Shown: positions 849 to 26,690, counted from the first letter of the stretch. The stretch is DNA of 43,576 nt from Desulfobacteria bacterium (GCA_041547605.1 JBFEUB010000003.1:1-43576); one strand, 5' to 3'. Numbers and translations: made by a program. The notes: generated by a model not told the origin, from the letters alone.

Positions 849-1004
849 ACATTCCGAGTAACATTCGTATAAAAAGCGTTTGTGCGGTTGTGGCCACGCT
901 ACTGCCGGAGGTTTTGCCATCCATTCCGTGATGCTGTTCTGTTAGAGGATTCCCCCTAACATTTTCATTGCAAGATATTTTTTCCGTGCTACAAGGACAA
1001 CCCG

Positions 1005-1643
1005 ATGATTGCGATTGTTGATTACAAGGCTGGGAACCTAAGGAGTGTCGAGCTGGCCGTTGGGAAGGTGGGCTTTGCTTGCACGGTGACACACAGCCGG
1101 GAAGAGATCTTGGGGAGTGAGAGAATCATTTTTCCAGGGGTGGGAGCGGCCGGAAAGGCCATGGCTGATTTGTCCCACTTGGGTTTGGATGAGGTGTTGA
1201 GGTATGCGTTCGAGGCCCGCAAGCCGATCCTGGGGATTTGCCTGGGGGCACAGATCATCCTGGAGGGGAGCGAAGAGAATGGTGCGCGGTGCTTGGGACT
1301 GATTAAAGGTGAGGTCAAGCTGTTTCCCCGTCCCCTTTTTTCTGAGGACAACGAACGTCTCAAGATACCACACATGGGGTGGAATGGCCTGCACTGGCGC
1401 AAAAAGCATCCAGTCTTGGAAGGGATTGTTCCGGCTGATGAGTTCTATTTTGTTCATGCTTATTATCCTCAACCTGCTTCAGATGACCGCGTTATCGGCA
1501 CCACGGGCTACGGCATCGAGTTTCCTTCCATCATTGGTTACAAGAACCTGATCGCCATGCAGTTCCATCCGGAAAAAAGCGGTTCAGCAGGCCTCAGGAT
1601 CCTGGAGAATTTTTGCACCTGGGATGGTCACTATGCTGAGTAA
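1005..1643 (+). CDS. hisH: Imidazole glycerol phosphate synthase, glutamine amidotransferase subunit
   Basis: MIAIVDY..GNL.SV, FPGVG, LGICLG (catalytic Cys), [15 protein letters not shown]. Confidence 0.96.
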
Positions 1644-2412
1644 AAGAATTATTCCATGTCTTGACGTGAGAGACGGAAAGACAACCAAGGGCATAAAATT
1701 CCAAGAAAATGTGGACATTGGCAATCCCGTGGAGATGGCCAGATTTTATTATGAGGAAGGAGCAGACGAGATTGTTTTCTACGATATCACGGCTTCAAGC
1801 GACCGGCGCGATATTATGATCGATGTGGTTCGCCGCGTGGCCGAGGAGATCTTTATACCGTTCTCTGTGGGTGGGGGGATTAGAACTATCGAGGATATGC
1901 GTCAGGTGCTTCTGGCCGGAGCGGAAAAGGTGAGTGTGAACACGGCAGCGGTTCAGGATCCCACGATCATCGCCAACGGGGCAAAGGCCTTTGGGAGCCA
2001 GTGTATTGTCCTCGGGATGGACGTGAAAAAGGTGGAAACATCAAAAAAGATTCCATCAGGATATGGGATAGTCATTCACGGCGGGAGGACCTATACGGGC
2101 ATTGATGCCCTTGCCTGGGCCAAGGAGGGAGAGAACCTGGGGGCGGGAGAGATATGCCTCAATTCTATTGACGCGGATGGAACGCAGCAGGGATACGAAA
2201 TGAACTTGACGCCACTCATCTCTGAAAACGTGAACATTCCGGTCATCGCTTCGGGGGGTGCCGGGGATGTCGATCATATCTATGATGTCTTGACGAATGG
2301 CAAGGCCGATGCAGCCCTGGTGGCCTCTATCGTCCACTACGGGACATACAAGATCAAGGAGATCAAAGAAAGCCTGCACAATCGGGGCGTGAAAGTCCGC
2401 ATGAGATGGTGA
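1633..2412 (+). CDS. hisF: Imidazole glycerol phosphate synthase, cyclase subunit
   Basis: [45 protein letters not shown]. The ATG at 1633 overlaps the end of hisH. Confidence 0.96.
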
Positions 2413-2570
2413 GGCGAAAGCCAGAAAGTGCCTTCTATCTTTGACTGAGGCGGCATGGGCCGGGGTATTGGACACCATCTGTGCGTGAGTCAGGCCTTCA
2501 CAGATCTTTGAGGGGTGGAGCGATTCCGCGAACGGGAGGAAAAAGGGGCGGGATCTCCGAATCAGTTATC

Positions 2571-3668
2571 ATGAAAGCGACATTGGCTTTAGAAGACGGG
2601 ACCGTGTTTTATGGCAACACCTTTGCCGGGGAGGGGGAGGTGTCGGGAGAGGTGGTCTTCAATACGAGCATGACAGGCTACCAGGAAGTCCTGACAGACC
2701 CTTCTTATAACGGACAGATTGTCACCATGACCTATCCCCTCATTGGTAATTACGGCATTAACTCTGAAGACGTGGAATCCAAAAGGATTCAAGTGGAAGG
2801 GTTTGTCGTGAGAGAGTACCAACCCGTCCCAAGCAATTGGCGAGCCGAACAGACCCTGGCGGATTACCTGGACCAGCAGGGGATCATTGGCATTGAAGGC
2901 GTCGATACCCGCGCGCTGACGCGACATATCAGGCTGGCAGGGGCGATGAAGGGGGTCATCTCAACGAAGGACCTGGACCCGAGTTCTCTGATCAAAAAGG
3001 CAAAGGCTTCCCAGGGGCTTGTTGGTCGGGATTTGGTCGAGGGGGTGACTTGTCAGGAGCCCTACGTGTGGCCGGAGAAGAATGGGGGGCGCTTTAAGGT
3101 GGTTGCATTCGATTGCGGCATGAAGTTCAACATAGCGCGAAGCTTGGCCCGAAGACGGTGTAGTGTGACAGTGGTGCCGGCCCACACCAGTGCGGACGAT
3201 ATCAGGAGCTTGAGCCCAGACGGCATCGTGCTTTCAAATGGTCCCGGCGACCCCGATCCGATCACCTATGTCGTTGACACAGTCAAGCGCTTAATTTCGG
3301 ACTATCCCATCTTTGGCATCTGCTTAGGTCATCAAATGTTGGGTTTGGCCTTTGGTGGTAAGACGTACAAACTGAAGTTCGGCCACCGGGGTGCAAACCA
3401 TCCAGTGAGGAATCTATTCACTGGCAAGGTGGAGATTACATCTCAAAACCACGGTTTTTGTGTTGATATTGAATCGATCAAAGATCCGGACATTGAAATA
3501 ACGCATATCAACCTGAACGACCATACCCTTGAGGGGATGAGGCATCGGAAGCTTCCCGTCCTGTCTGTGCAATATCATCCCGAGGCCTCCCCGGGGCCCC
3601 ACGATGCCAGCTACCTGTTTGATCAGTTTATAACCTTCCTGGAAAAGAAAAGGGACGCAAAACCGTGA
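2571..3668 (+). CDS. carA: Carbamoyl-phosphate synthase small subunit
   Basis: GEVVFNTSMTGYQE, LSNGPGDP, FGICLGHQ, QYHPEASPGPHD. Start placed at ATG 2571 (MKATLALEDG). Confidence 0.96.
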   Translation: MKATLALEDGTVFYGNTFAGEGEVSGEVVFNTSMTGYQEVLTDPSYNGQIVTMTYPLIGNYGINSEDVESKRIQVEGFVVREYQPVPSNWRAEQTLADYLDQQGIIGIEGVDTRALTRHIRLAGAMKGVISTKDLDPSSLIKKAKASQGLVGRDLVEGVTCQEPYVWPEKNGGRFKVVAFDCGMKFNIARSLARRRCSVTVVPAHTSADDIRSLSPDGIVLSNGPGDPDPITYVVDTVKRLISDYPIFGICLGHQMLGLAFGGKTYKLKFGHRGANHPVRNLFTGKVEITSQNHGFCVDIESIKDPDIEITHINLNDHTLEGMRHRKLPVLSVQYHPEASPGPHDASYLFDQFITFLEKKRDAKP

Positions 3669-5194
3669 TTCTGATCATTGATTTTGGTTCCCAGTACAAC
3701 CAACTCATTGCCAGACGGGTGCGCGAGGCCCACGTATTTTGCCAGATCGACGCTCCTTGGATCAGCCTGGGCCAAGTCAGGGCCTTATCCCCCGAAGGGA
3801 TCATCCTATCTGGAGGTCCGGCAAGCATCTATGAGAAGGGGAGTCCCAGTATAGACCCCGGCATCTTTGACCTCGGTATTCCCGTATTGGGTATCTGTTA
3901 CGGTATGCAGTACATGGTGGATGCTTTGGGAGGGGAGGTAATAAAGGCCGAGAAGAGAGAATATGGATTTGCTGAGCTTGATATAAAGGATGGGGCGGGC
4001 CTTTTTGAAGGCATTGAGGAGCAGGCCAGGTGTTGGATGAGCCATGGGGATACCATTCGACGCTTGCCCAAGGGTTTCAGGATCACGGCTTCTACACTCA
4101 ATACCAGGGTGGCGGCTACGGAGAATGCACCCAAAGGGTTCTACGGCGTGCAGTTTCATCCAGAAGTCGTCCACACGCCCAAGGGAAAGAAGATGCTCAG
4201 GAACTTCCTTTTCCGGATCTGTGGGTGCAAGAAGTCGTGGACGATGAAGTCTTTCATCAAAGAGTCCGTCCAGGAGATCAGGTCGGTCGTTGGAGACAAG
4301 AAGGTGATCCTTGGGTTAAGCGGGGGTGTGGATTCCTCAGTGACAGCGCTGCTCCTGCATCAGGCCGTTGGAAAGCAATTGACATGCATCTTCGTGGATA
4401 ACGGCCTGCTGAGGGAGGGTGAGGCTGAACAGGTCAAGGGGCTCTTCAGGAAACACTTTAAGGTGAATTTGAGATTTATCAGCGCTAGGCGACGGTTTCT
4501 GAACAGACTGAAGGGAATTGTAGACCCGGAAAAGAAGCGAAAGATTATCGGCCGCACGTTCATCGAGGCCTTTGAGAGAGAAGCTCGCAATCTTCCTGGA
4601 GTAAGATTTCTGGCGCAGGGGACCCTGTATCCAGATATTATCGAGTCCAGGTCGGCCTTTGGAGGCCCGAGTTCGGTGATCAAATCCCATCACAACGTGG
4701 GGGGCTTGCCAAGAAAGATGAAGCTCACGCTGATCGAACCCCTCAAGCACCTTTTCAAGGATGAAGTGCGCGTTCTTGGCAAGGAGCTTGGGCTGCCCGA
4801 GGATCTGATCTGGCGGCAACCGTTCCCCGGACCCGGGCTGGCCATTCGAATCATTGCTGATGTCACCCAGGCGAGACTTTGTATCTTACGGAATGTGGAT
4901 CGTATCCTCCTTGAGGAGATAACAAACAGGGGCCTATACAAGAGATTGTGGCAGTCGTTTGCGGTCCTTCTTCCTCTCAAAAGCGTGGGGATCATGGGGG
5001 ACCAGAGGACTTATGAGCACATTGTAGCCATTCGGGCGGTGACCAGTGTTGACGCTATGACGGCTGACTGGGCGAAGCTACCCCATGACTTGCTCGGGAG
5101 GATTTCCAACCGCATCATCAATGAAGTCAGAGGCGTCAACCGCGTGGTCTATGATATCAGCTCCAAACCACCGAGTACGATTGAGTGGGAATAA
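3665..5194 (+). CDS. guaA: GMP synthase (glutamine-hydrolysing)
   Basis: DFGSQY, LGICYGMQ, QFHPE, LSGGVDS, IKSHHNVGG, KPPSTIEWE. GTG start overlaps the carA stop (GTGA). Confidence 0.97.
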   Translation: MILIIDFGSQYNQLIARRVREAHVFCQIDAPWISLGQVRALSPEGIILSGGPASIYEKGSPSIDPGIFDLGIPVLGICYGMQYMVDALGGEVIKAEKREYGFAELDIKDGAGLFEGIEEQARCWMSHGDTIRRLPKGFRITASTLNTRVAATENAPKGFYGVQFHPEVVHTPKGKKMLRNFLFRICGCKKSWTMKSFIKESVQEIRSVVGDKKVILGLSGGVDSSVTALLLHQAVGKQLTCIFVDNGLLREGEAEQVKGLFRKHFKVNLRFISARRRFLNRLKGIVDPEKKRKIIGRTFIEAFEREARNLPGVRFLAQGTLYPDIIESRSAFGGPSSVIKSHHNVGGLPRKMKLTLIEPLKHLFKDEVRVLGKELGLPEDLIWRQPFPGPGLAIRIIADVTQARLCILRNVDRILLEEITNRGLYKRLWQSFAVLLPLKSVGIMGDQRTYEHIVAIRAVTSVDAMTADWAKLPHDLLGRISNRIINEVRGVNRVVYDISSKPPSTIEWE

Positions 5195-5226
5195 TCTCCA
5201 AAGCACTTCAACATGTGTATTGGGAC

Positions 5227-5504
5227 CTAGTGTTGTGTCCCAGGAGTTTGTTCCAAGAATATGGAATCGCCAAAAAGCCATTTTCCTTGCTCCGTGAGTG
5301 TTTTCGGGACATCAACTTCGCTCCGCTAAATCATGCACACAGTGAAGCGGAGCGCTAAAACTCGGGCCTAAGGCCCTCAAACAGTTTATGATTCTTAACG
5401 CTCCACTCAGTTGAAGTCCGGCTCCGAAAAAGCTCAATGTCGCTCGGAAAAGGCTTTCGGCTCCAGTATCAGTAATAGAACTTATTCCTGAGACGCGATA
5501 CTAG
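5227..5504. mobile_element. MITE-like non-coding palindromic element bounded by CTAG
   Basis: Left end CTAGTGTTGTGTCCCAGGAGT matches the reverse complement of the right end, CTAGTATCGCGTCTCAGGAAT, at 16/21. Nested inner inverted repeats (AAAGCC/GGCTTT, TTTTCGG/CCGAAAA, TCAACT/AGTTGA). No credible ORF. Confidence 0.6.
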
Positions 5505-5684
5505 CAGGTTCAGCCAAAAAGAGCCTTCGGGTTGGAGCGGAGGCCCAATGGCTGAAGGCTAAAGGCGCAGGGGAAGACCCATAGACCTCGTGCTCTTCGC
5601 CCTCAGCCTTGTCCGTGTCCTGCAGACATACTGAAAGAATAGAGATTTCCTGTATACGGAATGGTGGTTAGGTAGAAGTAATCT

Positions 5685-8600
5685 ATGCCAAAACGGACGG
5701 ACATATCCAGGATCATGATCATCGGTTCCGGCCCGATTATTATCAGCCAGGCCTGTGAGTTTGACTACTCCGGGACCCAGGCTTGCAAGGCCTTGAAGGA
5801 AGAGGGGTATGAGGTTGTGCTGGTGAACAGCAACCCAGCAACCATTATGACGGATCCTGAAGTAGCCGATCATACCTACGTCGAGCCGATAACCCCTGAG
5901 ATAGTAGCCATGATCATCGAGAAGGAGAGACCCCAGGCAATTCTACCCACGCTCGGAGGACAAACCGGGCTGAACACGGCTGTGCAGATGGCTGAGACAG
6001 GGATCTTAGAAAAGTTCAACGTAGAAATGATCGGAGCCTCTGCTGAGGTCATTAAGAAGGCCGAAGACAGGGACCTTTTTCGGGGTGCTATGGAGCGCAT
6101 TGGACTGCGCGTTCCCAAAAGCGGCATTGCCGGCGACATAAAGAGCGCCCGAAAAATTGCAGAGCAGATCGGTTATCCGATTATTGTCCGTCCCAGCTTT
6201 ACCCTTGGCGGTACAGGCGGTGGCGTCGCCTACAATCCCGTGGAGCTTGAAAAATGGGCTTCGTGGGGATTGGATGCCAGCCTGATTCATGAAATCATGC
6301 TAGAGGAGTCCGTGATTGGGTGGAAGGAATTTGAACTCGAGGTCATGCGGGATGGAAAAGACAATGTGGTGATCATCTGTTCTATTGAGAACCTGGACCC
6401 CATGGGCATCCACACGGGTGACAGCATTACCGTGGCACCGGCTCAGACCCTGACCGATAGGGAATATCAAGTGATGCGGGATGCCGCCATCGCCGTGATC
6501 CGTGAAATTGGAGTCGATACGGGCGGGTCGAACATCCAGTTCGCCGTCAATCCAGAAAATGGAGAGATGGTCATCATAGAGATGAATCCCAGAGTCTCAA
6601 GGAGTTCGGCCCTTGCCTCCAAGGCCACCGGCTTTCCGATTGCCAAGATCGCTGCCAAGTTGGCTGTGGGCTATGCTTTGGACGAGCTTCCGAACGACAT
6701 CACCGGAGAGACCGTGGCTTCGTTTGAACCGACGATTGACTACTGCGTGGTCAAAATTCCCCGATGGACCTTTGAGAAATTTCCGGATGCCGCCGACTAT
6801 CTGACCACCTCCATGAAATCGGTAGGTGAGACCATGGCCATTGGCCGAACGTTTAAGGAGGCCCTTCAAAAAGGCATACGCTCTTTGGAGATCGGACGAT
6901 TTGGTCTTGGGGCGGATGGCAAGGGTAGGTTGGAGCAGGACGGAAAACTCCCTTCCTTGGAGGAGATCAAGGAGAAGCTCATTAATCCCAATTCCCAGCG
7001 GCTCTTTTACGTCCGATACGGTATCAAGGCCGGAATGGATGTGGAAACAATCCATGGGTTGACCGGCATCGATCCTTGGTTCCTGCATCAGATGACCCGA
7101 ATCGTCGAAGTCGAAGGGGAGATCCTCAAGGCTGGTCATGGGTTGTCGGAAGACTTGACCCGCAAGAGCAAAGCATACGGGTTTTCAGATGTTCAGTTGG
7201 CCTCGCTTACGAACAAAGATGAGGATGGAATCCGAGCCCTGCGGAAGAGGCTTGGCATTGGCCCCGTCTACAAACTGGTAGACACGTGTGCAGCAGAATT
7301 TGAGGCCCGCACACCCTATTATTATTCTACCCATGAAAAGGAGAACGAGGCGCGAATATCCACGAGACCAAAGGTCATGATCTTGGGTGGAGGGCCCAAT
7401 CGAATCGGACAGGGCATCGAATTTGATTATTGCTGTGTCCAGGCATCCTTTGCGCTAAAGGAGGAGGGCATTGAGAGCATTATGGTCAACAGCAACCCAG
7501 AGACGGTGAGCACGGATTATGACACGTCGGACAAGCTCTACTTTGAGCCTCTTACCAAGGAAGATGTGCTCAATATCGTGGAAGCTGAAAAGCCTTCAGG
7601 GGTCATTGTGCAGTTTGGAGGCCAAACACCGCTCAATCTTTCGGCTGCTCTTTCCGAAGCCGGGGTCACCATCCTTGGCACGTCGCCCGAAAGCATTGCC
7701 TTGGCCGAAGACCGGGAGCTTTTCAAGAACGCGCTTCGAAAACTGGGGTTGAAGCAACCAGAGAATAGGACCGCCATGAGTGTGACAGAAGCAATTGCCG
7801 CAGCAGAGATGATTGGGTATCCCCTGATCGTGCGGCCGTCTTATGTCCTTGGGGGCCGGGCCATGCAGATTGTGTATGACAGACCGACTCTGGAGACTTT
7901 TACACGCAAGGCCCTGCTTGCCTCTCCGGAGCACCCTGTCCTTATTGATGCATTTCTTGCTGATGCCATTGAAATTGATGTGGATGCTATTTCCGACGGA
8001 CAGACGACCACTGTCGGCGGGATTATGGAACATATTGAAGAGGCTGGCATCCATTCTGGGGACAGCGCCTGTGTGCTCCCGCCCCAGGGATTGGCGCCGT
8101 TCCTTTTGGAACAGATTAAGGGGCATGTCCGTGCGCTGGCCCGTGAACTCCATGTCGTGGGTTTGATAAACATTCAATTTGCTATCAAGGACGAGGAGAT
8201 CTTTGTCCTAGAAGTCAATCCAAGGGCATCACGGACCATCCCCTTTGTGAGTAAGGCTACGGGCGTCCCTCTGGCCAAGCTGGCAACGAAGGTGATGATA
8301 GGGCACACGTTGGAGGAATTGGGATTTACCCGGGAGGTAGAAACAACGCACGTCTCAGTCAAGGAAGCAGTGATGCCTTTTGATCGATTTCCAGACGTGG
8401 ACATCCTCTTAGGGCCTGAGATGAAATCCACCGGTGAGGTCATGGGCATCGACAGCGACTTTGGCAGGGCATTTGCCAAGTCTCAACTGGCAGCCGGACA
8501 GCACCTGCCATCTGAAGGCGCTGTATTTGTTAGCGTCAAGGATGCGGACAAGGATGGGGTCTACCATGTGGCCCATCAGCTATATCACATGGGTTTCGAT

Positions 8601-8996
8601 ATTCTATCCACACGGGGCACGTCTCATTACCTTGAACGTGCCGGTATTCCAAACCGGACGGTAAAAAAGATTGCCGAGGGACGGCCCAATGTCATTGATC
8701 GCATCAAAAACAAAGAAATTCAGTTAGTGATCAACACACCGTCAGGCAAAGAGCATGCGGAGAGCACCCGTATCATCCGTCGCACCGTGCTCCGGTATGG
8801 TCTTCCCTATGCGACAACGCTTGCTGGCGCCTGTGCCATGGCCTCAGGGATTCAGGCCATGAAAAAGAAGAAGCTGACCGTCCGGTCACTTCAAGATTTT
8901 CACATAGCGTGTGGTCAAGTGGCAGCGAAAGGGCTTGCAGACGGGTCTCAGAGGAGAAAGGGTGCAGCCAAGGTGTTGTTTAAGAAGGTGGGGTGA
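5685..8996 (+). CDS. carB: Carbamoyl-phosphate synthase large subunit (copy 1)
   Basis: [23 protein letters not shown], two ATP-grasp halves ([11 protein letters not shown]; [10 protein letters not shown]), C-terminal MGS-like domain. Confidence 0.97.
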
Positions 8997-8999
8997 ACC

Positions 9000-10397
9000 A
9001 TGGAGCTTTTTCAGGGGCCCAGAGAAGCATGTGGTATCTTTGGTGTGTTTGGACATGATGATGCTGCGAAGTTGACCTACTTCGGGCTATATGCATTGCA
9101 GCACCGGGGGCAGGAGAGTGCCGGTATCGTGACCTCCACGGGGAAGTCGATCCACGAATACAAGGGGATGGGACTCGTTCCAGAGATTTTTAATGAATCC
9201 ATCTTGAGTGGACTCCATGGTCATATGGCCATCGGGCATGTGAGGTACTCCACAACCGGATCTTCTACTGCAAAGAACGCACAACCCTTTGTGGCCTCGT
9301 ATGCGCGCAAAACCCTGGCCATTGGCCACAATGGAAACCTGACTAATGCCAGACTGCTTAGGAAGAACTTGGAGAAAAAGGGCTCCATTTTTCAGACGAC
9401 CATGGATAGCGAGGTCATTGTCCACCTCTTGGCGCGGAACTTACACGAGGGGTTGGAAGAATCCTTGATAAAGGCGGTGTCGGATATCGAGGGGGCCTAT
9501 TGCTGTGTCTTAATGACCGAAGATAAGCTCATCGCCTTGCGGGATCCCAATGGTTTTCGGCCCCTCTGTCTGGGAAAGCTCAACGGAGGATACATTGTTG
9601 CTTCTGAGACGTGTGCTCTAGATCTAATAGATGCCCAGTATATTAGGGATATTGATCCCGGGGAGATACTGATCATTGGTGAAGAAGGTTTGAAGTCCAT
9701 AAAGCCCTTTGCCGAACGAAGGAATACTTTCTGTATCTTTGAATTCATCTATTTTGCCAGACCCGATAGCAATATTTTTGGCCAGAATGTATACGCTGTG
9801 CGGAAGAGGCTGGGCAGAAAGCTGGCAGAAGAATATCCTATTGAGGCCGACTTTGCCATGCCGTTCCCAGATTCCGGTAACTACGCTGCTATCGGTTTCT
9901 GTCATGGGTCGGGCATCCCCCTCGAAATGGGTGTCATACGGAACCATTACGTTGGACGAACTTTCATTGAGCCCGCCCAGTCCATGCGCGATTTTGGGGT
10001 AAAAGTGAAACTTAACCCAGTCCGAGAGATTCTGGATCAGAAACGTGTCGTGATTGTCGAGGACTCAATTATCAGGGGGACCACCAGCAAGATGCGCATC
10101 AAGACCTTACGGGCAGCAGGGGCCAAAGAAATCCACATGGTGGTCAGTTGTCCTCCCCATCGATATGCCTGTTACTATGGTATTGACTTTTCAACCAGGG
10201 GGGAATTGATTGCCTGCCACCACACCGTGGAAGAGGTGAAAAACTTTATTGGCCTTGACAGCCTATGCTATTTGAGCCTCTCCGGTATGGTTGAGGCTAC
10301 AAGACTTGAACAAAACGGCTTTTGTTTAGCCTGTTTTGATGGTAAATATCCAATCCAACCCGATGAAGGCTTCTCGAAATTATGTCTTGAACTTTAA
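9000..10397 (+). CDS. purF: Amidophosphoribosyltransferase (propeptide / 4Fe-4S type, intact glutaminase motifs)
   Basis: 10-aa propeptide then CGIFG, LQHRGQESAG, GHVRYST, HNGNL, MDSE, PRPP motif VEDSIIRGTT, C-terminal CLAC. Confidence 0.95.
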   Translation: MELFQGPREACGIFGVFGHDDAAKLTYFGLYALQHRGQESAGIVTSTGKSIHEYKGMGLVPEIFNESILSGLHGHMAIGHVRYSTTGSSTAKNAQPFVASYARKTLAIGHNGNLTNARLLRKNLEKKGSIFQTTMDSEVIVHLLARNLHEGLEESLIKAVSDIEGAYCCVLMTEDKLIALRDPNGFRPLCLGKLNGGYIVASETCALDLIDAQYIRDIDPGEILIIGEEGLKSIKPFAERRNTFCIFEFIYFARPDSNIFGQNVYAVRKRLGRKLAEEYPIEADFAMPFPDSGNYAAIGFCHGSGIPLEMGVIRNHYVGRTFIEPAQSMRDFGVKVKLNPVREILDQKRVVIVEDSIIRGTTSKMRIKTLRAAGAKEIHMVVSCPPHRYACYYGIDFSTRGELIACHHTVEEVKNFIGLDSLCYLSLSGMVEATRLEQNGFCLACFDGKYPIQPDEGFSKLCLEL

Positions 10398-10521
10398 CAG
10401 CGCGCGCATTCCCTGGCACGATTTATCGCGGCTGCAGGGAGCTTCAATAATTTCTTTTCCCGGAACGCAGGCTTCTGGCTACAAACGGCAGACGAAAAGC
10501 CGGCCACAACCTGTTTGACGC

Positions 10522-11265: not shown

Positions 11266-11329
11266 TTGTGGTTGGGGTGTTGATTCTTGCGATTGAGGTT
11301 TTTTCCTGTCGAACTTTAGATGGGATTTG

Positions 11330-14300
11330 ATGGTGATTTTAGAGAAAATCAAGAGACTTTTAGTCAAAAAAGGACTCACCGGCCTGTACTTTGGAAGGTG
11401 CCTGGCAACCGTTCCAGAGGGCTCGTTGGTCCTTTTTCCGTATGCTCCTGGTGTCTTTAACTGCGGGATAACGGGGATACTGGCCTTCAAGGGGGGAGGA
11501 TCTGCGAGAGGCGTCGATTCCCCTGTTCAGGAGCTTGCTGGCATGGTGGAGGGCCTTGCTGAATGCGCTTGGAATGCGGTTGAGGAAGAACGCATTGGGT
11601 TAGAAGATCATTACCTTGGCGGGGAGAAGGTCTTGGGAAAGATGAAGCCCCTGTGTGGAAGCCTTAAGACCGAAGATAGATTTTATGAAGTCTTTTCTAA
11701 CATTGGGGATCAGGATCGACTTTCGAGGCTCTGCAGCACGCTACAGGATGTGATCGAGACCGAAGAAAGAGCCCTCATTCAGAAGACAGGGCGTTTAGCA
11801 CCCAACGCGTACGAGCTCATAAGTCTCCGGATCGTTCATTTAAAGGACGTGTTGTGGTCTTTAAAACACGAGGTTCTGGAGAATGTTGAGAAGGTGAAGG
11901 ACCTCGGGAACTTTACAGAATACGAAAACACTCCGATTGCGGTCAAACTGCTGAAGCGGATTAACCTTGTTTTCAATAACCTGGATCGTCTCGAAGTTCG
12001 GGGAAGGGACTCCGCGGGGATTTCACTCTTTTTTGTGCTTGATGAAAGCGTCTTCTCGGAGCTGAAGCAGAGACTGCAGAAGGCATCTCTCCTTGAGGAA
12101 CTATCGACCAGACAGACGGACAAGGTTCTTGTGAATCGTAACATCAGGATTACTAACCGTGGTTCTTCGGTCTCGCTCGTATTTACTTATAAGATTGCGG
12201 CTGAGGTGGGAAGTCTTGGCGATAACGTCAAGTATCTGAGAAGGCAGGTTCGAGAGGATAAAGTATTTCAGCACCTCATTAGGTTTCCTCATCTCTATCA
12301 GACAATGGTAGGACACACCAGGTGGGCATCGGTTGGGGAGATCACTGAGGCCAACTGCCACCCTCTTGATAACTTTGGCATGGAGCTGGACGATCCGCAA
12401 GATAGAGATCACACAGGCGTTTCTAACTCAGATTCTGCAGCAGGGATTATTCATGTTTGTCTTAATGGGGATATCGACAATTATCAGAACCTGAGGCGGG
12501 ATTATGAGAGAGAAACGGGCAAATCGATTGCGAGCGTGATTACCACGGATACCAAAATCATTCCTCTTCAGGTCGAAAAGTATTTCAAGGCAGGCAATAC
12601 GCTTGAAGGATCCTTCCGTCTGGCAGTGAATGATTTCGATGGCTCTCATGCCATTGCTATGCATACTGATATTGCGCCGGGGAGGATTTTCCTTGCACAA
12701 AAGGGAAGCGGGCAGGCCATGTTTGTAGGACTGGCTGAAGACTGCTACATCCCGGCTTCCGAGATCTATGGATTCGTTGAGGAAACTTCCCGCTACATTA
12801 AGCTGGATGGTGATAAAGTGACGCAAGGGCAATCCGGTGAGACACAGGGTCAAATTTTCGTCTTGGATCAGGACAGTGACGGAGGCATAGAGGGCATAAC
12901 GGCCATGCACTATGATGGAACGCCGATAGAACTTACCGAAAAAGACGTCAAGGAGACAGAAATTGCCTCCAGAGACATCGACCGCCAGAACTATCCTCAC
13001 TATTTTCTGAAAGAGATCTTAGAATCGCCGGAATCCTTTGAGCAGACTGTCCAGAACCGGGTCGCCATTCTGGAACACGACGGTAAGAGGTATCCACAGG
13101 TGCTGATAGACGGTTCGGTTATCACGCCTCGCCTTGAAGAAGCCGTCAGGGAGAGGACCCTCCGTAACATCTTTTTCATTGGGCAGGGCACAGCGGGGGT
13201 TGCTGCAGCGGGGTGTGCTGAATTGTTGCGTTGCTATCTGAAAGGGACCAATTTGCGGGTGAGTTCACTTAAGGCTTCTGAATTCAGTGGGTTCATGGTC
13301 GATGACACCTTGGAAGACACCCTGGTTGTTGCCATCACCCAATCTGGAACGACTACCGACACAAACCGTGCAATTGACATGGCAAGAGAGCGAGGGGCGC
13401 ATACCTTGGCCATTGTCAACCGGCGAGATTCAGATATTACTTTTAAGGTGGATGGCGTACTCTATACGAGTACTGGCAGAGATATTGAAATGTCCGTCGC
13501 CTCGACCAAGGCTTACTATTCCCAGATCGCAGCCGGAAGCATCCTGGGCCTTAAGCTCGCCCATCTGACCTCGAGCAGAACAGACGATTTTGTCCTGGCT
13601 GAGATCGAACATCTTCTCAGCATCCCTGCTGCCATGAAAGCACTGTTGGTAAACCATAAAGAGATCGGGGGTTCAGCTGAGACGCTTGCCGTTACAAAGC
13701 ATTACTGGGCCGTTGTTGGAAGTGGACCGAACAAGGTATCTGCTGATGAGATCAGGATAAAATTGAGCGAACTTTGCTACAAGACCATTTCTTCAGATGT
13801 CGTGGAAGACAAAAAGCACATTGATCTTTCGTCGGAACCCCTCATCTTTGTTTGTGCAGCAGGCAACCGGGAAGATGTGGTAAGCGATATTGTGAAGGAC
13901 ACCGCTATATTTAAGGCCCATCAGGCCGTGCCCATTGTCGTTACTTCAGAAGGGGAGCACCGGTTTGATCCATACGCCGATGCAGTGATCCGGGTGCCTG
14001 AAGTGCAGGAGCGCTTTGCGCCGATAATCAATACCTTGGCAGGTCACATATGGGGGTACTATGCGGCCTTGGCCATCAATGCAGAATCTCGTTTCCTGTT
14101 TGATTTCCGGGAGCAGATCAACGAACATGTTGCCTCATCCATGGAGCGGGATATGGACGTGTACGAGACCGTGCTGGATGAGGCATTTCGAGAAAAGATT
14201 GCGCGCTTTTATGCAGCCTTCAAGGAGAGGATACGGCGAGGACGATATGCGACAGCCCTCGCACTGAACACGGCGTCAGACCTCACGCTTTTGCTGAAGT

Positions 14301-15085
14301 ACTTGTCGGGAAGGCTTCCCATGTCCGACTTTGAGTCTGATTTTGGTATGAAGGGGACTGCTCCCAACATGCTGAGCGCTTTTTTCGATTGCATTGGAAA
14401 AATGATCGATGCCATGGCGAGGCCGATTGACGCTATCAAACACCAAGCCAAAACAGTGACGGTAGGCACGAGCAGGATTGTGGAGAAGATACAGGGCCTT
14501 CTCTTTGAAGCCCTGCAACAATATGGGTTCAGCGAAAACCAGCTGACAAACTTGAATGTTCTCGTCCTGAGACGCTTACAGGAAGTTGTTGCCGAGATCA
14601 TGGGGACTACCGTTTACAGAATTGAAGGTCTGAACTTCTTGGGAGAACCGGTGGAGGATTCTACCATCCATCTCATCAAAAAAGAGGGGAGTGCCGCGGA
14701 TCTCGTCTCCCGCGTAGAGACGGATAACAGACTGGTGGGTACCAAGCGGATCATCGTAAAAAACGGAAATGTCTTCATCGGCACAGGAAGAAGGGACAAT
14801 CGAAGCATTCTAGCCGTACCAGTCTTGTCAACCGGTACTAAAATTGACTACCTCCTGCTGTTCAATGTTGGATTTCGAAAAGAGGTCGCACTTGAAAAGA
14901 AAGTAACCGCGTTGGGTGGGAAATATCATCACATCCGAAATATTGTTGAGGAGACAAGCATCGCCTGGAAGGATGCGTATCTCAACCTTCTTAAGATTGA
15001 AGAGCTTTTTGGAATGTCTGCTGAGAAGATTGCCGAGGCGATTGTTTCCAATGTTCAGGATGAAGTTGAGGTTTCAACCGACTAA
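11330..15085 (+). CDS. Giant GlmS-like glutamine-fructose-6-phosphate aminotransferase (Ntn glutaminase + 2 SIS domains, with large insertions and extensions)
   Basis: CGITG, LDRLEVRGRDSAG, GHTRWA, LNGDIDN, TDT, TQSGTTTDT, EMSVASTKAY, KLSELCY, AKTVTV parallel GlmS motifs in order. About twice the normal GlmS length. Confidence 0.8.
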   Translation: MVILEKIKRLLVKKGLTGLYFGRCLATVPEGSLVLFPYAPGVFNCGITGILAFKGGGSARGVDSPVQELAGMVEGLAECAWNAVEEERIGLEDHYLGGEKVLGKMKPLCGSLKTEDRFYEVFSNIGDQDRLSRLCSTLQDVIETEERALIQKTGRLAPNAYELISLRIVHLKDVLWSLKHEVLENVEKVKDLGNFTEYENTPIAVKLLKRINLVFNNLDRLEVRGRDSAGISLFFVLDESVFSELKQRLQKASLLEELSTRQTDKVLVNRNIRITNRGSSVSLVFTYKIAAEVGSLGDNVKYLRRQVREDKVFQHLIRFPHLYQTMVGHTRWASVGEITEANCHPLDNFGMELDDPQDRDHTGVSNSDSAAGIIHVCLNGDIDNYQNLRRDYERETGKSIASVITTDTKIIPLQVEKYFKAGNTLEGSFRLAVNDFDGSHAIAMHTDIAPGRIFLAQKGSGQAMFVGLAEDCYIPASEIYGFVEETSRYIKLDGDKVTQGQSGETQGQIFVLDQDSDGGIEGITAMHYDGTPIELTEKDVKETEIASRDIDRQNYPHYFLKEILESPESFEQTVQNRVAILEHDGKRYPQVLIDGSVITPRLEEAVRERTLRNIFFIGQGTAGVAAAGCAELLRCYLKGTNLRVSSLKASEFSGFMVDDTLEDTLVVAITQSGTTTDTNRAIDMARERGAHTLAIVNRRDSDITFKVDGVLYTSTGRDIEMSVASTKAYYSQIAAGSILGLKLAHLTSSRTDDFVLAEIEHLLSIPAAMKALLVNHKEIGGSAETLAVTKHYWAVVGSGPNKVSADEIRIKLSELCYKTISSDVVEDKKHIDLSSEPLIFVCAAGNREDVVSDIVKDTAIFKAHQAVPIVVTSEGEHRFDPYADAVIRVPEVQERFAPIINTLAGHIWGYYAALAINAESRFLFDFREQINEHVASSMERDMDVYETVLDEAFREKIARFYAAFKERIRRGRYATALALNTASDLTLLLKYLSGRLPMSDFESDFGMKGTAPNMLSAFFDCIGKMIDAMARPIDAIKHQAKTVTVGTSRIVEKIQGLLFEALQQYGFSENQLTNLNVLVLRRLQEVVAEIMGTTVYRIEGLNFLGEPVEDSTIHLIKKEGSAADLVSRVETDNRLVGTKRIIVKNGNVFIGTGRRDNRSILAVPVLSTGTKIDYLLLFNVGFRKEVALEKKVTALGGKYHHIRNIVEETSIAWKDAYLNLLKIEELFGMSAEKIAEAIVSNVQDEVEVSTD

Positions 15086-15134
15086 GCCAGGGGAGTTCTC
15101 GCACAATACTTTTATAACAAAATCTTATTACTGA

Positions 15135-16805
<1,671 letters not shown>

Positions 16806-17038
16806 AGCTGAAACTGGAACCAGTACTGGCCATTTGCCTGAAGGCCTGTTTGCTTCATCCTGTCAGAGAAGGGCACATGTGACAGAAAGCGTTACGAAGT
16901 TTGTGCAGTCCTTCCTGCCCGCTCCTTGGTATTCACACAACCCCTGTTTCCTTCTTGCTTTTTCTTCTGTTTCGTTTTAAGCCATTTATTCGGGAAAAGG
17001 TCTTATGATTGCGAAATATCAACCGGGTCGGCAGGTCC

Positions 17039-18562
17039 ATGAAAAAGATTGAAGAAAGCCCGCTCCTTTATGAAATCAGCGAGGCACTCAATGTGAGTCT
17101 GGATCTTAAGAGGTCTCTTTACCGGGTCCTTGACATCCTTTCCAAATCAATGGACATGGTACGGGGTACTATTACCATTCTTAATCCCCTGCGCAACGAG
17201 ATTAGCATCGAAGTGGCCCACGGCCTTTCAAAGGCAGCCATGGAAAGGGGGAAATACAAGTTAGGCGAGGGGATTACGGGCCGTGTCATTGAGACAGGGA
17301 AGGCCCTCGTTGTACCAAAGATCAGCGAGGAGCCAATGTTCTTGAATCGAACCGCCACGAGAAGGGCCATTCATGACGAGGAACTCTCTTTCATCTGCGT
17401 CCCCGTAAAAAAGGGGAACCAGGTCGTAGGAGCCCTCAGTGTTGATCGGCTATTCGATAAGTCCTATTCATTAAGAGATGGCGAAAGACTGCTTTCTATC
17501 ATTGCCACGATGATTGCCCAGCATGTCATCAACCTGGAAACCATCCAGCGCGAAAAGGAGCAGCTTAGAGAAGAAAACAGGCGTCTTCAGCAAGAGCTTT
17601 CCAACAAGTACCGCATTACCAACATTGTGGGAAATAGCAACAAGATGCGGGAGGTCTTTCAAATGATCTCCCAGGTGTGCAAGAGCAATGCCACAGTACT
17701 GATTCGCGGGGAGAGCGGCACCGGCAAAGAGCTGGCTGCCAATGCGATCCACTACAACAGCCTTAGGTCAAAAAACCCTTTTGTAAAGGTCAACTGTGCA
17801 GCCATGCCTACCAATCTCATTGAAAGTGAGCTCTTCGGACATGAGAAAGGAGCATTTACAGGGGCGATCCGTCAGAAGAGGGGAAAGTTCGAACTGGCCA
17901 ATAAAGGGACGATCTTTTTGGATGAAATCGGATCGGTTGGCACGGATGTCCAGGTCAAACTCCTGAGGGTTCTTCAGGAAAAGGAGTTCGAGCGAGTAGG
18001 AGGGTACGAAACGATCAAGGCAGACGTTCGCTTCATAGCGGCTACCAACAAGAACCTGGAACAGGCTGTAGAGGACGGAACTTTTCGAGGAGACCTGTAT
18101 TACAGGTTGAATGTGTTTCCTATTTATATGCCGCCCCTGAGAGAACGCAGAACCGACATTCTGTTGTTGGCAGACCACTTTCTAGAACAATATGCGAAGG
18201 AGAATCAGAAGGACATCCGCCGGTTTTCTACGCCTGCCATCGATATGCTCATGCAGTATCATTGGCCCGGAAATGTACGCGAGCTTGAAAACTGCATTGA
18301 GCGAGCCGTGTTGCTTTGCCAAGAGGGAGTCATTCATAGTTATCACTTACCTCCCACTCTTCAGACAGCAGAAGAGTCCGATACCTTGCCAGACAGGTCT
18401 TTGGAAGAAGCTGTGGCAAATCTGGAACGGGAGATTATTGTGGACGCTTTGAAAACGACGCGTGGCAATATGGCAAAGGCTGCCCAGTTGCTGCGGACAA
18501 CCGAGCGGAAGTTTGCCTACAAGGCGAAGAGACATGAAGTGGACTATCGCCAATATCGTTGA
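17039..18562 (+). CDS. NifA-like sigma54-dependent transcriptional activator (GAF-AAA+-Fis HTH)
   Basis: N-terminal GAF ([15 protein letters not shown]), [40 protein letters not shown]-terminal HTH. Confidence 0.92.
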
Positions 18563-18656
18563 GCTCCAATAGACGTTGCGTTGTAGCCCAGTGTTTAGGG
18601 ATGAAAGATTATAAGACTGACATGCTCTTGGAGGCGTGTTCAAGGAGGAGGAAGAT

Positions 18657-19985
18657 ATGAAATGTGAGACAGTTGAAGACGTCCTCAGGGTGGTTCAAGA
18701 AAAGAATGTTAGTTTCGTCCAGTTCTGGTTCACCGACGTGTTGGGCATCCTGAAAAGCTTCGCGATCACGCCTTCTGAGCTGGAGGAAGGTTTGACCGAA
18801 GGGATGGGTTTTGACGGCTCGTCAATAGAAGGCTTTGCGCGGATTGAAGAGAGCGACATGATTGCCAAGCCGGACCCAACCACTTTTCAATTCTTACCTT
18901 GGAGGGGTCAGGACAAACCAGTTGCCAGGATGTTCTGTGACATTCTGCAACCGGATGGAACTCCTTATGAGGGCGATCCTCGGTATGTCTTCAAACGTGT
19001 TTTGAGCCGGGCGAACAACAAGGGGTTCACGTTTTACCTTGGGCCTGAGTTGGAATACTTCTACTTTGAAAGTAATGAGGCCCCTATAATTCTTGACAAA
19101 GGGGGATATTTCGACACTCGGCCGTTGGACATGGGCAGCGATCTGAGGCGGGAGACGATCTTTGCCCTCCAGGATATTGGGATTCAGGTTGAATACAGCC
19201 ACCATGAAGTTGCTCCCAGCCAGCATGAAATTGATATGCGCTATGACGAAGGATTAAGGATGGCCGACAAGACCATGACCCTCAGGATCGTGGTTAAGGA
19301 AATGGCCAGGCGGAGCGGATTCTATGCCACCTTCATGCCCAAGCCCATCTTTGCTGAAAACGGAAGCGGCATGCATACACACCAGTCGCTCTTTCAGGGA
19401 GAGAAAAACGCTTTTTTCGATGTCAACGACATCTATCATCTATCTGACGTGGGCAAGTGCTATATAGCCGGGATCATGCGTCATGCCCGTGAGATGGGAG
19501 CGATTACCAACCAGTGGGTCAACTCTTACAAACGCCTTGTGCCGGGTTATGAGGCCCCAGTGTATGTTTCCTGGGCTCGGCGGAACCGCTCAGCTATGGT
19601 TCGGGTGCCCATGTACAAGCCGGGCAAAGAACAAGCGACACGCATCGAGTTTCGCTCACCGGATCCGGCGTGCAATCCGTATCTGGCCTTTGCCGTGATG
19701 CTGGCTGCCGGGTTGAAGGGGATTGAGGAGAACTACCCGCTTCCGGACCCAGTGGAGGAAGACATTTATGATATGGATGAAGCGGCACGGGAGAAGGCAG
19801 GCATAGAGTCTTTGCCAGGAAATCTTTTTGAAGCGATTAAGGAAGTTGAAAAGAGTGAGCTGGTTCGTGAGACCCTGGGTGATCACATTTTTAACAAATT
19901 TGTAGAAAACAAGAAGATAGAATGGGATTCGTATCGCACCCACGTGAGCCGTTTTGAGATAGAAAAATATCTTCCGATCATGTAA
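18657..19985 (+). CDS. glnA: Glutamine synthetase type I (short, about 442-aa alpha-like form)
   Basis: FDGSSIEGF, GPELEY, SHHEVAPSQHEI, ATFMPKP..NGSGMH, NSYKRLVPGYEAP, RIEFRSPD. SD AGGAGG precedes ATG 18657. Confidence 0.95.
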   Translation: MKCETVEDVLRVVQEKNVSFVQFWFTDVLGILKSFAITPSELEEGLTEGMGFDGSSIEGFARIEESDMIAKPDPTTFQFLPWRGQDKPVARMFCDILQPDGTPYEGDPRYVFKRVLSRANNKGFTFYLGPELEYFYFESNEAPIILDKGGYFDTRPLDMGSDLRRETIFALQDIGIQVEYSHHEVAPSQHEIDMRYDEGLRMADKTMTLRIVVKEMARRSGFYATFMPKPIFAENGSGMHTHQSLFQGEKNAFFDVNDIYHLSDVGKCYIAGIMRHAREMGAITNQWVNSYKRLVPGYEAPVYVSWARRNRSAMVRVPMYKPGKEQATRIEFRSPDPACNPYLAFAVMLAAGLKGIEENYPLPDPVEEDIYDMDEAAREKAGIESLPGNLFEAIKEVEKSELVRETLGDHIFNKFVENKKIEWDSYRTHVSRFEIEKYLPIM

Positions 19986-20009
19986 GCGCCTACAGTATTT
20001 AACCACGTC

Positions 20010-21647
20010 ATGAAGATTGCACTGGCACAAATCAATCCTACCATCGGAGATTTCAGACAGAACACGGAAAAGATGTTGAGGATGGTGGAAAAGGCAAAGG
20101 GCCTTTCCTGCGACCTCATCGTCTTCTCGGAACTGGTTATCTCCGGATATCCGCCACGAGATCTTCTGGAGAGGCGAGACTTTATGGCTGCGAACCTGGA
20201 TCATCTGCACAGACTCGTTGCGTCGGTGACGGGGATTGGTGTTGTTTGCGGCTTTGTGGACGAAAACCTCGATCAGGAGGGGAAGCCCCTATACAACGCG
20301 GCTGCACTCTTTGATCAAGGGGAGATCCTTCATCAAGCCCATAAGAGGTTACTTCCCGATTATGACGTTTTTGATGAAAGAAGGTACTTCAAACCAGGTA
20401 CGGAGTGCCCGTCTTTTTCCTATAAAGGCCTGAAGATAGGGCTGACCATCTGTGAGGACATTTGGAACGACAAGGATTTTTTTTCTAAGCAGCTATACCC
20501 GATTGACCCGGTGGCGCTTATGGTCAAGGACGGGGCCAACCTTATCATCAATATATCAGCCTCTCCCTACTATGCAGGGAAGAGAGAATTTAGATGGGCT
20601 ATGCTCGGCAATGTTGCCAAGAAATATCGGGTCCCTCTCCTTTATGTCAATCAGGTGGGAGGCAATGACAGTGTGCTTTTCGACGGGATTAGCACTGCCT
20701 TTGATGCAACAGGCCAGATCGGAGCCCATTGCAGTGACTTTGAGGAGGACATGGTTGTTTACGACACGGATACCCAAAAAGGCGATCTCCACACAATCAG
20801 TGAAACCGGGGCAGGGTCCATCCTGAAGGCTCTGATCATGGGTACCAGAGATTATGTGCATAAATGCGGATTTGCCAAGGCAGTAGTCGGATTAAGCGGG
20901 GGAATTGATTCGGCCGTGACCGCGTATATTGCAGTGCAGGCCTTGGGCATGGAAAATGTGATAGGTGTTTTCATGCCCTCGCAGTATACCTCCAAGGACA
21001 ACTTTGAAGATACCCGGCAGCTTACCCAGAATCTGGGCATCGAACTCGTTCATGTGCCGGTCGGCGGGATATTCGAGAAATTCCTGGCAGAGCTGGCTCC
21101 GGTTCTCAAAGATGTGACCACAGAGGTTACCGGCCAGAATATACAAGCCCGCATCCGGGGGACCCTCCTTATGGCCTTTTCCAATAAACTTGGTTCTCTC
21201 CTTCTTTCTACAGGAAACAAATCTGAACTCGGGGTTGGTTATTGCACTCTCTATGGTGATATGAGTGGGGGACTAGCCGTCATTTCGGATGTCCCCAAGA
21301 TGATGGTCTATGAACTGGCTCGACTGATCAACAAGGATAAAGACATCATCCCCGACAGAATCCTTCAAAAACTACCTTCCGCGGAACTCAAGCCGGATCA
21401 GGTGGACCAAGATGATCTGCCGCCTTATGACATTCTGGATGGCATATTGACGGCGTATATTGAAGAGAACAAAGGGCCGGACGAAATCATTGCTATGGGG
21501 TTCAACCCCACGATCGTTAAACAGACTATTTTCTGGATTGATCGGAATGAGTACAAGCGGCACCAGGCCCCCCCGGGCCTCAAGGTGACCACCAAATCCT
21601 TTGGCTATGGAAGAAGGTACCCCATAGCCTGGAAATTTTGGGCATAA
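20010..21647 (+). CDS. nadE: Glutamine-dependent NAD+ synthetase
   Basis: Nitrilase domain triad (FSEL, HKRLLP, TICEDIW) plus GLSGGIDS, NIQARIRG, TGNKSE, YCTLYGD, PSAEL. Confidence 0.95.
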   Translation: MKIALAQINPTIGDFRQNTEKMLRMVEKAKGLSCDLIVFSELVISGYPPRDLLERRDFMAANLDHLHRLVASVTGIGVVCGFVDENLDQEGKPLYNAAALFDQGEILHQAHKRLLPDYDVFDERRYFKPGTECPSFSYKGLKIGLTICEDIWNDKDFFSKQLYPIDPVALMVKDGANLIINISASPYYAGKREFRWAMLGNVAKKYRVPLLYVNQVGGNDSVLFDGISTAFDATGQIGAHCSDFEEDMVVYDTDTQKGDLHTISETGAGSILKALIMGTRDYVHKCGFAKAVVGLSGGIDSAVTAYIAVQALGMENVIGVFMPSQYTSKDNFEDTRQLTQNLGIELVHVPVGGIFEKFLAELAPVLKDVTTEVTGQNIQARIRGTLLMAFSNKLGSLLLSTGNKSELGVGYCTLYGDMSGGLAVISDVPKMMVYELARLINKDKDIIPDRILQKLPSAELKPDQVDQDDLPPYDILDGILTAYIEENKGPDEIIAMGFNPTIVKQTIFWIDRNEYKRHQAPPGLKVTTKSFGYGRRYPIAWKFWA

Positions 21648-26661: not shown

Positions 26662-26690
26662 TTGACAGTGCGGTCGGACACCAATATATT
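26662..26690 (+). promoter_or_regulatory. Putative sigma70 promoter of the GAF-ANTAR gene
   Basis: TTGACA-17 nt-TATATT, followed 7 nt later by ATG 26698. Confidence 0.65.

Follow-up and report, generated by a model that had tools for sequence, protein, structure and literature searches.

A glutamine-themed super-cluster of housekeeping genes in a Desulfobacteria genome and its possible nitrogen control

Introduction

In operon theory, bacterial genes cluster by shared pathway, by shared complex or by joint transfer. A contig of a sulfate-reducer-like Desulfobacteria bacterium (GCA_041547605.1, JBFEUB010000003.1) raises the question of whether a shared nitrogen donor can also hold genes together. 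There, glutamine amidotransferase genes of histidine, pyrimidine/arginine, purine, amino-sugar and NAD synthesis lie on one strand with genes for glutamine synthetase and glutamate synthase. The window, by which we mean the whole stretch analysed, has 43,576 nucleotides and is the complete contig C3 of a metagenome-assembled genome (MAG) of 315 contigs and 3.46 Mb, which is 95% complete with 4.5% estimated contamination. G, C and L numbers are our handles for genomes, contigs and loci. A preliminary description, made from the sequence alone, had placed a glutamine island at 1005..21647 and read it as either a regulon or a transferred second set of enzymes.

We conclude, with moderate confidence, that the locus is a native, vertically inherited super-cluster of housekeeping genes for making, recycling and spending glutamine, kept together for joint nitrogen-controlled expression. 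The physical finding is solid: the super-cluster is native and substrate-themed, and its genes are single-copy except for the carB, purF and glnA pairs and a HisF paralogue of 44% identity. From gene order, tight spacing and local regulators we infer that the cluster lets the cell express its glutamine makers and spenders in concert, under nitrogen control.

Results

Gene content and extent of the cluster

Gene identities were assigned by NCBIfam and Pfam scans of all long open reading frames (ORFs) of the window, with curated cut-offs. All genes named in the preliminary description (HisHF, CarAB, GuaA, PurF, GlmS-like, PyrG, NadE, glnA, NifA-like, GltD-like and kdsB) were found on the plus strand, with scores above or near the NCBIfam cut-offs. 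HisH, CarA, GuaA, PurF1, PyrG and NadE reached the curated family score, and two proteins stayed below the family cut-off, namely PurF2 (316 against 350 bits) and the GlmS-like protein (257 against 381 bits).

The window opens with the 3' part (3..848) of a gene for a 778-amino-acid fusion of GXGXG and GltD-like (Pyr_redox_2, 4Fe-4S) parts. This fusion closes, as its last subunit, the split glutamate synthase that starts on contig C124. It is followed by hisH (1005..1643; TIGR01855, 203 bits against a cut-off of 105; single copy), for the glutaminase subunit of imidazole glycerol phosphate synthase, and by hisF (1624..2412; TIGR00735, 360 bits), for the cyclase subunit. These two overlap by 20 nt, and no hisA lies between them. 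The gene carA (2481..3668; TIGR01368, 527 bits; the sole carA found) encodes the small, glutaminase subunit of carbamoyl-phosphate synthase, and carB (CarB1, 5685..8996; NF003671, 1690 bits) encodes the large subunit. Between the two lies guaA (3665..5194; NF000848, 810 bits), for the glutamine-hydrolysing GMP synthase, the start of which overlaps the carA stop by 4 nt. A gap of 3 nt separates carB from purF (PurF1, 9000..10397; TIGR01134, 528 bits), for amidophosphoribosyltransferase.

The next gene, kdsB (10522..11265; NF003952, 310 bits), encodes CMP-Kdo synthetase, which is no amidotransferase and consumes CTP, the product of PyrG. The long-form GlmS gene (11327..15085; 1252 amino acids, with class-II amidotransferase and SIS domains) and pyrG (15159..16805; CTP synthase; NF003792, 860 bits) precede the gene of the NifA-like enhancer-binding protein (17009..18562). 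The series continues with glnA (18636..19985; type I glutamine synthetase; TIGR00653, 528 bits), 85% identical to a copy on C124, and, after 24 nt, with nadE (20010..21647; NF010588, 663 bits, residues 1-543), for a glutamine-dependent NAD+ synthase with nitrilase-type glutaminase and synthetase domains.

The glutamine island is thus real and larger than first described, since four more same-strand genes follow up to 29158 and the genes of C124 lie upstream. The four are carB2 (21847..25047), a second full-length CarB (NF003671, 1496 bits; 52% identical to CarB1); purF2 (25078..26457), a PurF-like paralogue 30 nt further on (TIGR01134; 33% identical to PurF1); the gene of a GAF-ANTAR RNA-binding regulator (26662..27393); and a 521-amino-acid glutamate-synthase-like gene (27593..29158). 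The reverse complement of C124 overlaps the window start with an exact 141 bp and contributes, in the same orientation, a second GlnA, GlyA, a 76-amino-acid Lrp/AsnC ORF and the three-gene split glutamate synthase. Together, the window and C124 hold about 28 genes on one strand over 40 kb. Members of the cluster are the two glnA copies, the split glutamate synthase, hisHF, carA, guaA, carB, purF, kdsB, the long-form GlmS gene, pyrG, the NifA-like activator, nadE, the second carB/purF-like pair, the GAF-ANTAR regulator and the glutamate-synthase-like gene.

Nine of the 14 amidotransferase genes found in the genome sit in this one run of about 28 genes, where the nine include NadE and the putative amidotransferase subunit of glutamate synthase. 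A hypergeometric test gives a P of about 1e-16, and multiplying by about 3200 possible positions raises this to about 4e-13; gene number was estimated for this value, and PdxT and some other amidotransferase families lay outside the family searches. The assembly has five class-I amidotransferase (PF00117) genes, four of them in the window and the fifth, TrpG/PabA-like, on C19. Of its four GATase_7 (PF13537) genes, three are in the window, and the fourth is an AsnB-like gene at the start of C83. One PurQ-type, one CobQ-type and one GatA-type gene occur elsewhere in the genome.

The usual pathway neighbours are absent, as the preliminary description had stated: the annotated window has no other his, pur, gua or nad gene. 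The partner steps are off-cluster, with hisA on C169 and guaB on C37, and therefore the amidotransferase step alone of each pathway was recruited.

Conservation and rearrangement among relatives

Orthologues of the cluster genes were found in 38-40 of 41 related genomes, the long GlmS-like gene being present in 38. Both CarB types and several PurF types are spread across the order. We examined five well-assembled genomes of other families (G038, G025, G028, G039 and G036). In three of them (G038, G025 and G028) the GlmS-like gene adjoins PyrG, on the opposite strand. G028, alone of the five, has KdsB beside the GlmS-like gene, with CarA-CarB-PurF 22 kb off, and no query gene lies beside the GlmS-like gene in G039 and G036. 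As read from position tables, CarB1 adjoins PurF1 in 12 of 16 other-family genomes. The series carA-carB-purF and kdsB-GlmS-pyrG are blocks also found outside the genus. Because these blocks occur elsewhere in the order, kdsB is no random passenger; its earlier designation as the sole unrelated one does not hold, given the KdsB-GlmS-like-PyrG trio in G028. An ordinary single-copy gene order shared by relatives accounts for the two sub-blocks and not for the whole.

The fusion of these two blocks, in which guaA separates carA from carB, and the genes added to it are particular to the genus; the fusion was seen in G019, G009, G008, G010, G024, G016 and G017. The order carA-guaA-carB was seen in eight genomes, and the junction of KdsB with the GlmS-like gene in 16 genomes or loci. 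A 73-kb contig of G009 reads NadE-GltBx3-HisHF-CarA-GuaA-CarB-PurF-(iron-containing alcohol dehydrogenase, sugar aminotransferase)-KdsB-GlmS-PyrG-activator-AsnB. Its last gene (L066, 17409-19328), of the glutamine-hydrolysing asparagine-synthase type and 639 amino acids long, comes right after the NifA-like activator, so a further amidotransferase joined the cluster there. Other arrangements are GlmS-PyrG-NadE (L068), GlmS beside HisFH and glutamate synthase (L063), and GlyA-HisHF-GuaA-KdsB-GlmS-GlnA-NadE (L054).

A second lineage, with GlmS-like proteins of 54-59% identity and MAG records titled Desulfobacteraceae, Desulfatiglandales or Deltaproteobacteria, has similar membership in another order. 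It reads GuaA-HisH-...-GlmM-NagB-like-GlmS-(576 amino acids)-PyrG-GAF/ANTAR-GluS-DUF1846-(CarB2)-PurF2-NadE, with GdhA in some. Across other species, AsnB, another class-I amidotransferase, GdhA and GlmM are added.

After removal of 11 loci that duplicate genome contigs, 40 types of same-strand junction between query genes were counted, and a few of these include genes unrelated to glutamine (KdsB, aldehyde:ferredoxin oxidoreductase, ferredoxin and HdrA). The neighbour of NadE is GlnA, CarB2, PyrG, PurF2 or GltB, depending on the genome, and GuaA was found in at least five contexts. Among loci with at least 8 kb of flank, some contigs being counted twice, one or more further amidotransferases were present in 21 of 24 with a GlmS-like protein at least 60% identical, in 10 of 13 at 50-59%, and in one of five more distant ones. 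A contig of the closest relative, G001, is collinear over the end of GlnA, NadE, CarB2 and PurF2 at 94.6% nucleotide identity. The G001 "chromosome" consists of contigs chained by 100 N, and its long-range order is no evidence; other CP0706xx records are probably chained contigs as well, with loci that have empty flanks.

Such reshuffling could result from neutral accretion, in which conserved essential genes drifted together through rearrangement, perhaps aided by repeats, and the shared substrate is a coincidence. We regard this as rather unlikely. It would account for the dispersed blocks of the five other-family genomes and for the failure to find a cluster-wide regulatory signal, and a repeat of more than 100 copies does lie inside the cluster, with another at variant junctions. 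However, the cluster consists almost wholly of glutamine and glutamate enzymes, without ribosomal, tRNA-synthetase or other conserved genes. Each pathway is represented by its amidotransferase step alone, and the members re-associate in many orders. Moreover, the second lineage has the same membership in a differently ordered cluster, and the chance probability is about 1e-16.

An explanation by pathway, which we consider improbable, would have the locus supply nucleotides, phosphoribosyl pyrophosphate (PRPP) and envelope precursors: pyrimidines through carAB and pyrG, purines through purF and guaA, NAD through nadE, the purine-linked hisHF, and lipid A and murein through GlmS and kdsB. The CarB1-PurF1 pairs of other families, both sub-blocks in G028, and the GlmM and NagB-like genes beside the long GlmS of the second lineage all suit it. 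It does not explain why purine, pyrimidine, histidine and NAD synthesis contribute amidotransferase steps alone to the cluster, nor why two glutamine synthetases, glutamate synthase, GdhA (in relatives) and AsnB (in G009) belong to it. Both explanations, neutral accretion and nucleotide/envelope supply, are weakened because of this lack of other pathway genes and the presence of glutamine synthetase, glutamate synthase, GdhA and AsnB.

Copy number and composition

The other half of the preliminary description, a horizontally transferred second set of amidotransferases, predicts housekeeping copies elsewhere. A tblastn search of the whole assembly (E <= 1e-8) found no second HisH, KdsB, GlmS-like, PyrG or NadE; for CarA and GuaA it returned merely partial matches of 30-36% on C19 and C66, and the HisF paralogue is on C97. 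The genes carB, purF and glnA are indeed present twice, but both copies of each pair lie within the cluster, and for the other genes the 95%-complete assembly gave no second copy. The GC content of the window (0.49-0.53) is close to that of the genome (0.498 +/- 0.022), its tetranucleotide correlation ranks 13th among 42 contigs, and the annotation of the window shows neither an integrase nor another mobility gene. The marks of a horizontal island, namely atypical composition, mobility genes and housekeeping copies elsewhere, were thus not found. Single-copy status, native composition and the presence of the genes across the order, including both CarB and both PurF types, argue against transfer, which we hold to be very improbable.

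An assembly or binning artefact joining unrelated pieces, which a 315-contig metagenome bin with some contamination and many repeat-broken contigs might suggest, has equally little probability, as nearly every junction recurs in other assemblies and activator-gene remnants upstream of GlnA in L053 and L054 support the junction from the NifA-like gene to GlnA. Transfer and misassembly are both contradicted.

Sigma-54 promoters and transcription

Two sigma-54 promoters are predicted on C124. One, TGGCACAAGTCTTGCC, which G009 also conserves, stands 66 nt before the first glutamate-synthase gene; the other, TGGCCTGTTACTTGCT, lies 78 nt upstream of the upstream glnA. The 12-mer CTACAAAAACGT has exactly two occurrences in the 3.46 Mb, one upstream of each predicted promoter (glnA and gltB), and therefore the glnA and glutamate synthase units on C124 very probably share an activator. 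The NifA-like protein of the cluster is a candidate activator for the CTACAAAAACGT boxes. It has the architecture of a GAF domain, a sigma-54 AAA+ domain and an HTH_8 domain, and passes TIGR01817 marginally (536.7 bits against a cut-off of 528.85). No nifH over the cut-off was found in the 95%-complete assembly, the best score being 51 bits against 394.

The 76-amino-acid ORF of C124 (L001, 5031-5261, minus strand of the contig) is a stand-alone Lrp/AsnC ligand-binding domain (PF01037, 37.9 bits), with glyA on one side and the predicted sigma-54 promoter of the glutamate synthase genes on the other. This small protein may sense amino acids.

A promoter-like block precedes hisH (955..995, plus strand; TTGCAA at 968-973, a 16-nt spacer and TACAAG at 990-995). 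It is kept in all five aligned species despite a differing upstream gene. Before pyrG, the ribosome-binding site alone is conserved. The block and the bare region upstream of pyrG would fit a long hisH-to-pyrG unit. Scans for sigma-70 promoters and terminators gave no more sites than shuffles, and the useful ones were limited to those at 26662 and 27445 and the leader terminator. Three public RNA runs of one study contained 8-27% of sampled words and gave short contigs over 26, 22 and 10 of 30 bins, at low depth.

Local control parts are present: a GAF-ANTAR protein with its RNA target, two predicted sigma-54 promoters with a shared box, a GAF-type sigma-54 activator and the promoter-like block of hisH. 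The earlier reading as a regulon is borne out to the extent of these devices and falls short of a cluster-wide signal.

A predicted ANTAR antitermination leader

The GAF-ANTAR regulator matches PF13185 (76.5 bits) and PF03861 (62.7 bits against a cut-off of 27.3), and an in-frame ATG at 26698 is its likelier start. Between its gene and the 521-amino-acid gene, the plus strand holds in order a sigma-70-like promoter, two hairpins and a strong terminator. The promoter (TTGACA-17-TAAAAT, 27445..27473) agrees with the consensus at 11 of 12 positions. The RNA target (27484..27530) has a 7-bp hairpin P1 (27487-27506) with loop AAUGGU and a 3-bp hairpin P2 (27516-27527) with loop ACUGAG, both loops having A at position 1 and G at position 4. 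The intrinsic terminator (27522..27561; fold -41.3 kcal/mol, z = -3.8) includes in its 5' arm the 3' arm of P2 (27525-27527) and ends in a run of eight T.

This layout stands downstream of the GAF-ANTAR gene in all eight loci compared, with TTGACA at the promoter place in seven. In an alignment of the eight leaders, 98.8% of the cells pair and three P1 pairs covary. A covariance model scored the genome's own target at 44.4 bits, the sole strong match there. In relatives, the model found four more sites that had not been used to train it: two before gdhA, one before the GluS gene and one before glmM, which there heads a glmM-nagB-like-GlmS unit. The count of targets is one in this genome and several in the second lineage, including the one before glmM and the long GlmS.

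In structural terms, the leader matches a canonical ANTAR antitermination target. The passages of Ramesh et al. 2012 (PMC3369931) that bear on this define such a target as a dual hairpin with hexanucleotide loops, A1 and G4, the second hairpin overlapping an intrinsic terminator; they also link ANTAR targets to glutamate synthase genes in Desulfotomaculum reducens. The predicted leader shares with those nitrogen regulons the dual hairpin, the terminator overlap and the glutamate synthase link. It differs in its sensor, which is a GAF domain, and the same passages state that no GAF-ANTAR protein was characterised at that date.

Unusual members

The split glutamate synthase has three parts: a 376-amino-acid putative amidotransferase subunit, a 4Fe-4S and FMN subunit, and the GXGXG-GltD fusion. 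The 376-amino-acid subunit resembles GATase_6 weakly (E 0.012) and, in an hhalign comparison, PurF motifs also weakly (probability 21%), and sequence and profile searches of the PDB gave nothing meaningful. Its predicted structure was unusable (mean predicted local distance difference test score 42.9), with a shallow alignment of 13 sequences that were all at least 78% identical.

The long GlmS has a split class-II amidotransferase domain, SIS domains and an extension at the C-terminus, and a leader precedes its NCGI motif (residues 45-48), so that its cysteine stands at residue 47 of the ORF and not directly after the initiator methionine. Against TIGR01135 it scored 229 bits as a whole protein and 218 in the genome search, below the cut-off of 418 for a canonical GlmS. 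It resembles bacterial GlmS in its class-II amidotransferase and SIS domains, but has twice the length, the leader before the nucleophile cysteine and the lower score. No canonical GlmS was found in the assembly. The long form is the sole GlmS-like gene in this genome and in 35 of 36 matching related genomes (41 searched); the exception, G031, has a canonical GlmS (845 bits) without the long form. Because no other GlmS was found, the long GlmS probably works like GlmS. Its place after glmM and a nagB-like gene in the second lineage speaks for a part in hexosamine synthesis. Always 3' of the long GlmS in that lineage is a conserved 576-amino-acid protein without Pfam or NCBIfam match (L089 13812-15542, L091 13979-15709, L117 2434-4164).

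PurF2 retains the motifs NCGVFG and DDSIVRGT, which we take to be its cysteine nucleophile and PRPP motifs, respectively. One carA was found in this genome, and the CarB2 and PurF2 types are spread across the order; the CarB2/PurF-like pair is old. In G041-G043, of the second lineage, the CarB2 type is the sole CarB found, and CarB2 is therefore probably a working large subunit of carbamoyl-phosphate synthase.

The 521-amino-acid protein encoded at 27593..29158 has a Cys-rich N-terminus and matches the FMN domain of Glu_synthase (PF01645, 52.5 bits). No amidotransferase domain and no NCBIfam match were found in it, and designed TIM barrels were the sole matches of a PDB search.

Between guaA and carB lies a dispersed repeat of about 280 bp (5227..5504), resembling a miniature inverted-repeat transposable element, with more than 100 genome matches of 70-98% identity. 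Many copies are at contig ends, and the G001 contigs break at the same place. The repeat probably causes much of the assembly fragmentation and is no part of cluster function.

Neighbouring redox genes

Past 29158 the theme shifts to aldehyde:ferredoxin oxidoreductase and Hdr/Nuo-like redox genes. On the same strand, window positions 29650-39936 encode aldehyde:ferredoxin oxidoreductase, a small ferredoxin, a 931-amino-acid HdrA-like protein, an HdrC-like protein, and NuoE-, NuoF- and HoxU-like subunits. The block resembles an electron-bifurcating module and has no relation to the glutamine theme. In the 491-bp gap before the aldehyde:ferredoxin oxidoreductase gene, at about 29250-29460, there seems to be a small Cys-rich ORF, below the length cut-off of the ORF scan, that is ferredoxin-like by eye.

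Discussion

The reading we favour is a native super-cluster shaped by the making, recycling and spending of glutamine. Its makers would be the two glnA genes, and its recycling system the split glutamate synthase. The spenders would be hisHF, carA/carB, guaA, purF, the long-form GlmS, pyrG, nadE and the second carB/purF-like pair. In the course of accretion, carA-carB-purF and kdsB-GlmS-pyrG would have fused in this genus. Then guaA would have come to separate carA from carB, and further additions would have been hisHF, glutamate synthase, glnA, nadE and carB2-purF2; the attached members and their places differ between species. Through a few long same-strand transcripts, the levels of the enzymes that produce and consume glutamine could thereby be adjusted jointly, under control by nitrogen status. 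More tentatively, gene order may be organised by the nitrogen donor itself, as a "glutamine economy" unit that keeps its enzymes in fixed proportions through GAF sensors of nitrogen status (the sigma-54 activator and the ANTAR protein), with selection repeatedly drawing in nadE, asnB, guaA and hisH in different lineages.

Several observations weigh against the favoured reading. The genomes compared are related, and counts across them are not independent. L053 and L054 keep a remnant of the activator gene at the junction, L054 also a repeat; they may be deletions or repeat-mediated assembly chimeras, in which case the junction count is somewhat inflated. In none of the five genomes examined from other families was the full cluster seen, and it is thus not required. 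Ordinary pathway logic covers part of the grouping, namely the pairing of carA and carB and, for envelope precursors, the association of kdsB, pyrG and GlmS. On the regulatory side, the genome encodes at least 14 sigma-54 activators, any of which could use the shared box. A sigma-54 consensus scan of the window gave 28 matches against 23.5 expected, none of them well placed intergenically, and no signal was found that would link any regulator to the amidotransferase genes. An Rfam scan of the window and C124 (E <= 1) gave no match. The covariance model found no second convincing ANTAR site in the genome itself, the next best (17.5 bits, E 0.6) lying near the end of C100. Finally, none of the 24 RNA-library contig pieces shown (58 more exist) bridges two genes, and DNA carry-over is possible.

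The super-cluster can be compared with several known systems. The carAB and pyrimidine/arginine operons of bacteria are the textbook comparison. Here too carA and carB share one strand, and in G028 they are directly adjacent and followed by purF. Unlike in the carAB operon, guaA stands between carA and carB with a 4-nt overlap, amidotransferase genes of other pathways lie on both sides, and a second carB has no carA of its own. Nitrogen operons under sigma-54 and enhancer-binding proteins, such as glnA-ntrBC and gltBD, form a second comparison. The present locus likewise has predicted -24/-12 promoters before glnA and the glutamate synthase genes, a shared box and a GAF-AAA+-HTH activator nearby. 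However, its activator scores as NifA where no nifH was found, and the locus holds about nine amidotransferase genes for which no sigma-54 site was found. In the aromatic supraoperon of Bacillus subtilis, cross-pathway genes are linked by a shared metabolic branch. The likeness is that genes of different pathways are kept on one strand, whereas here the nitrogen donor glutamine is the sole common denominator. Our search of the full-text literature, with subscription journals outside its coverage, found no description of amidotransferase genes clustered by glutamine use.

The claim is a limited one, as the enzymes themselves are ordinary and their functional coupling is a proposal. Several parts of the locus lend themselves to tests: the GAF-ANTAR regulator, so far uncharacterised, with its clean RNA target; the NifA-like activator, encoded where no nifH was found; the second CarB/PurF-like pair without its own CarA; and the long-form GlmS in place of the canonical enzyme. 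A co-substrate as the sole common denominator would be a different organising principle from those of operon theory, especially when the cluster is reshuffled yet kept in two lineages. If this is true, co-substrate sharing, and not pathway membership, would be a driver of operon evolution, and it would suggest that amide nitrogen is budgeted in these slow-growing anaerobes as one unit of expression.

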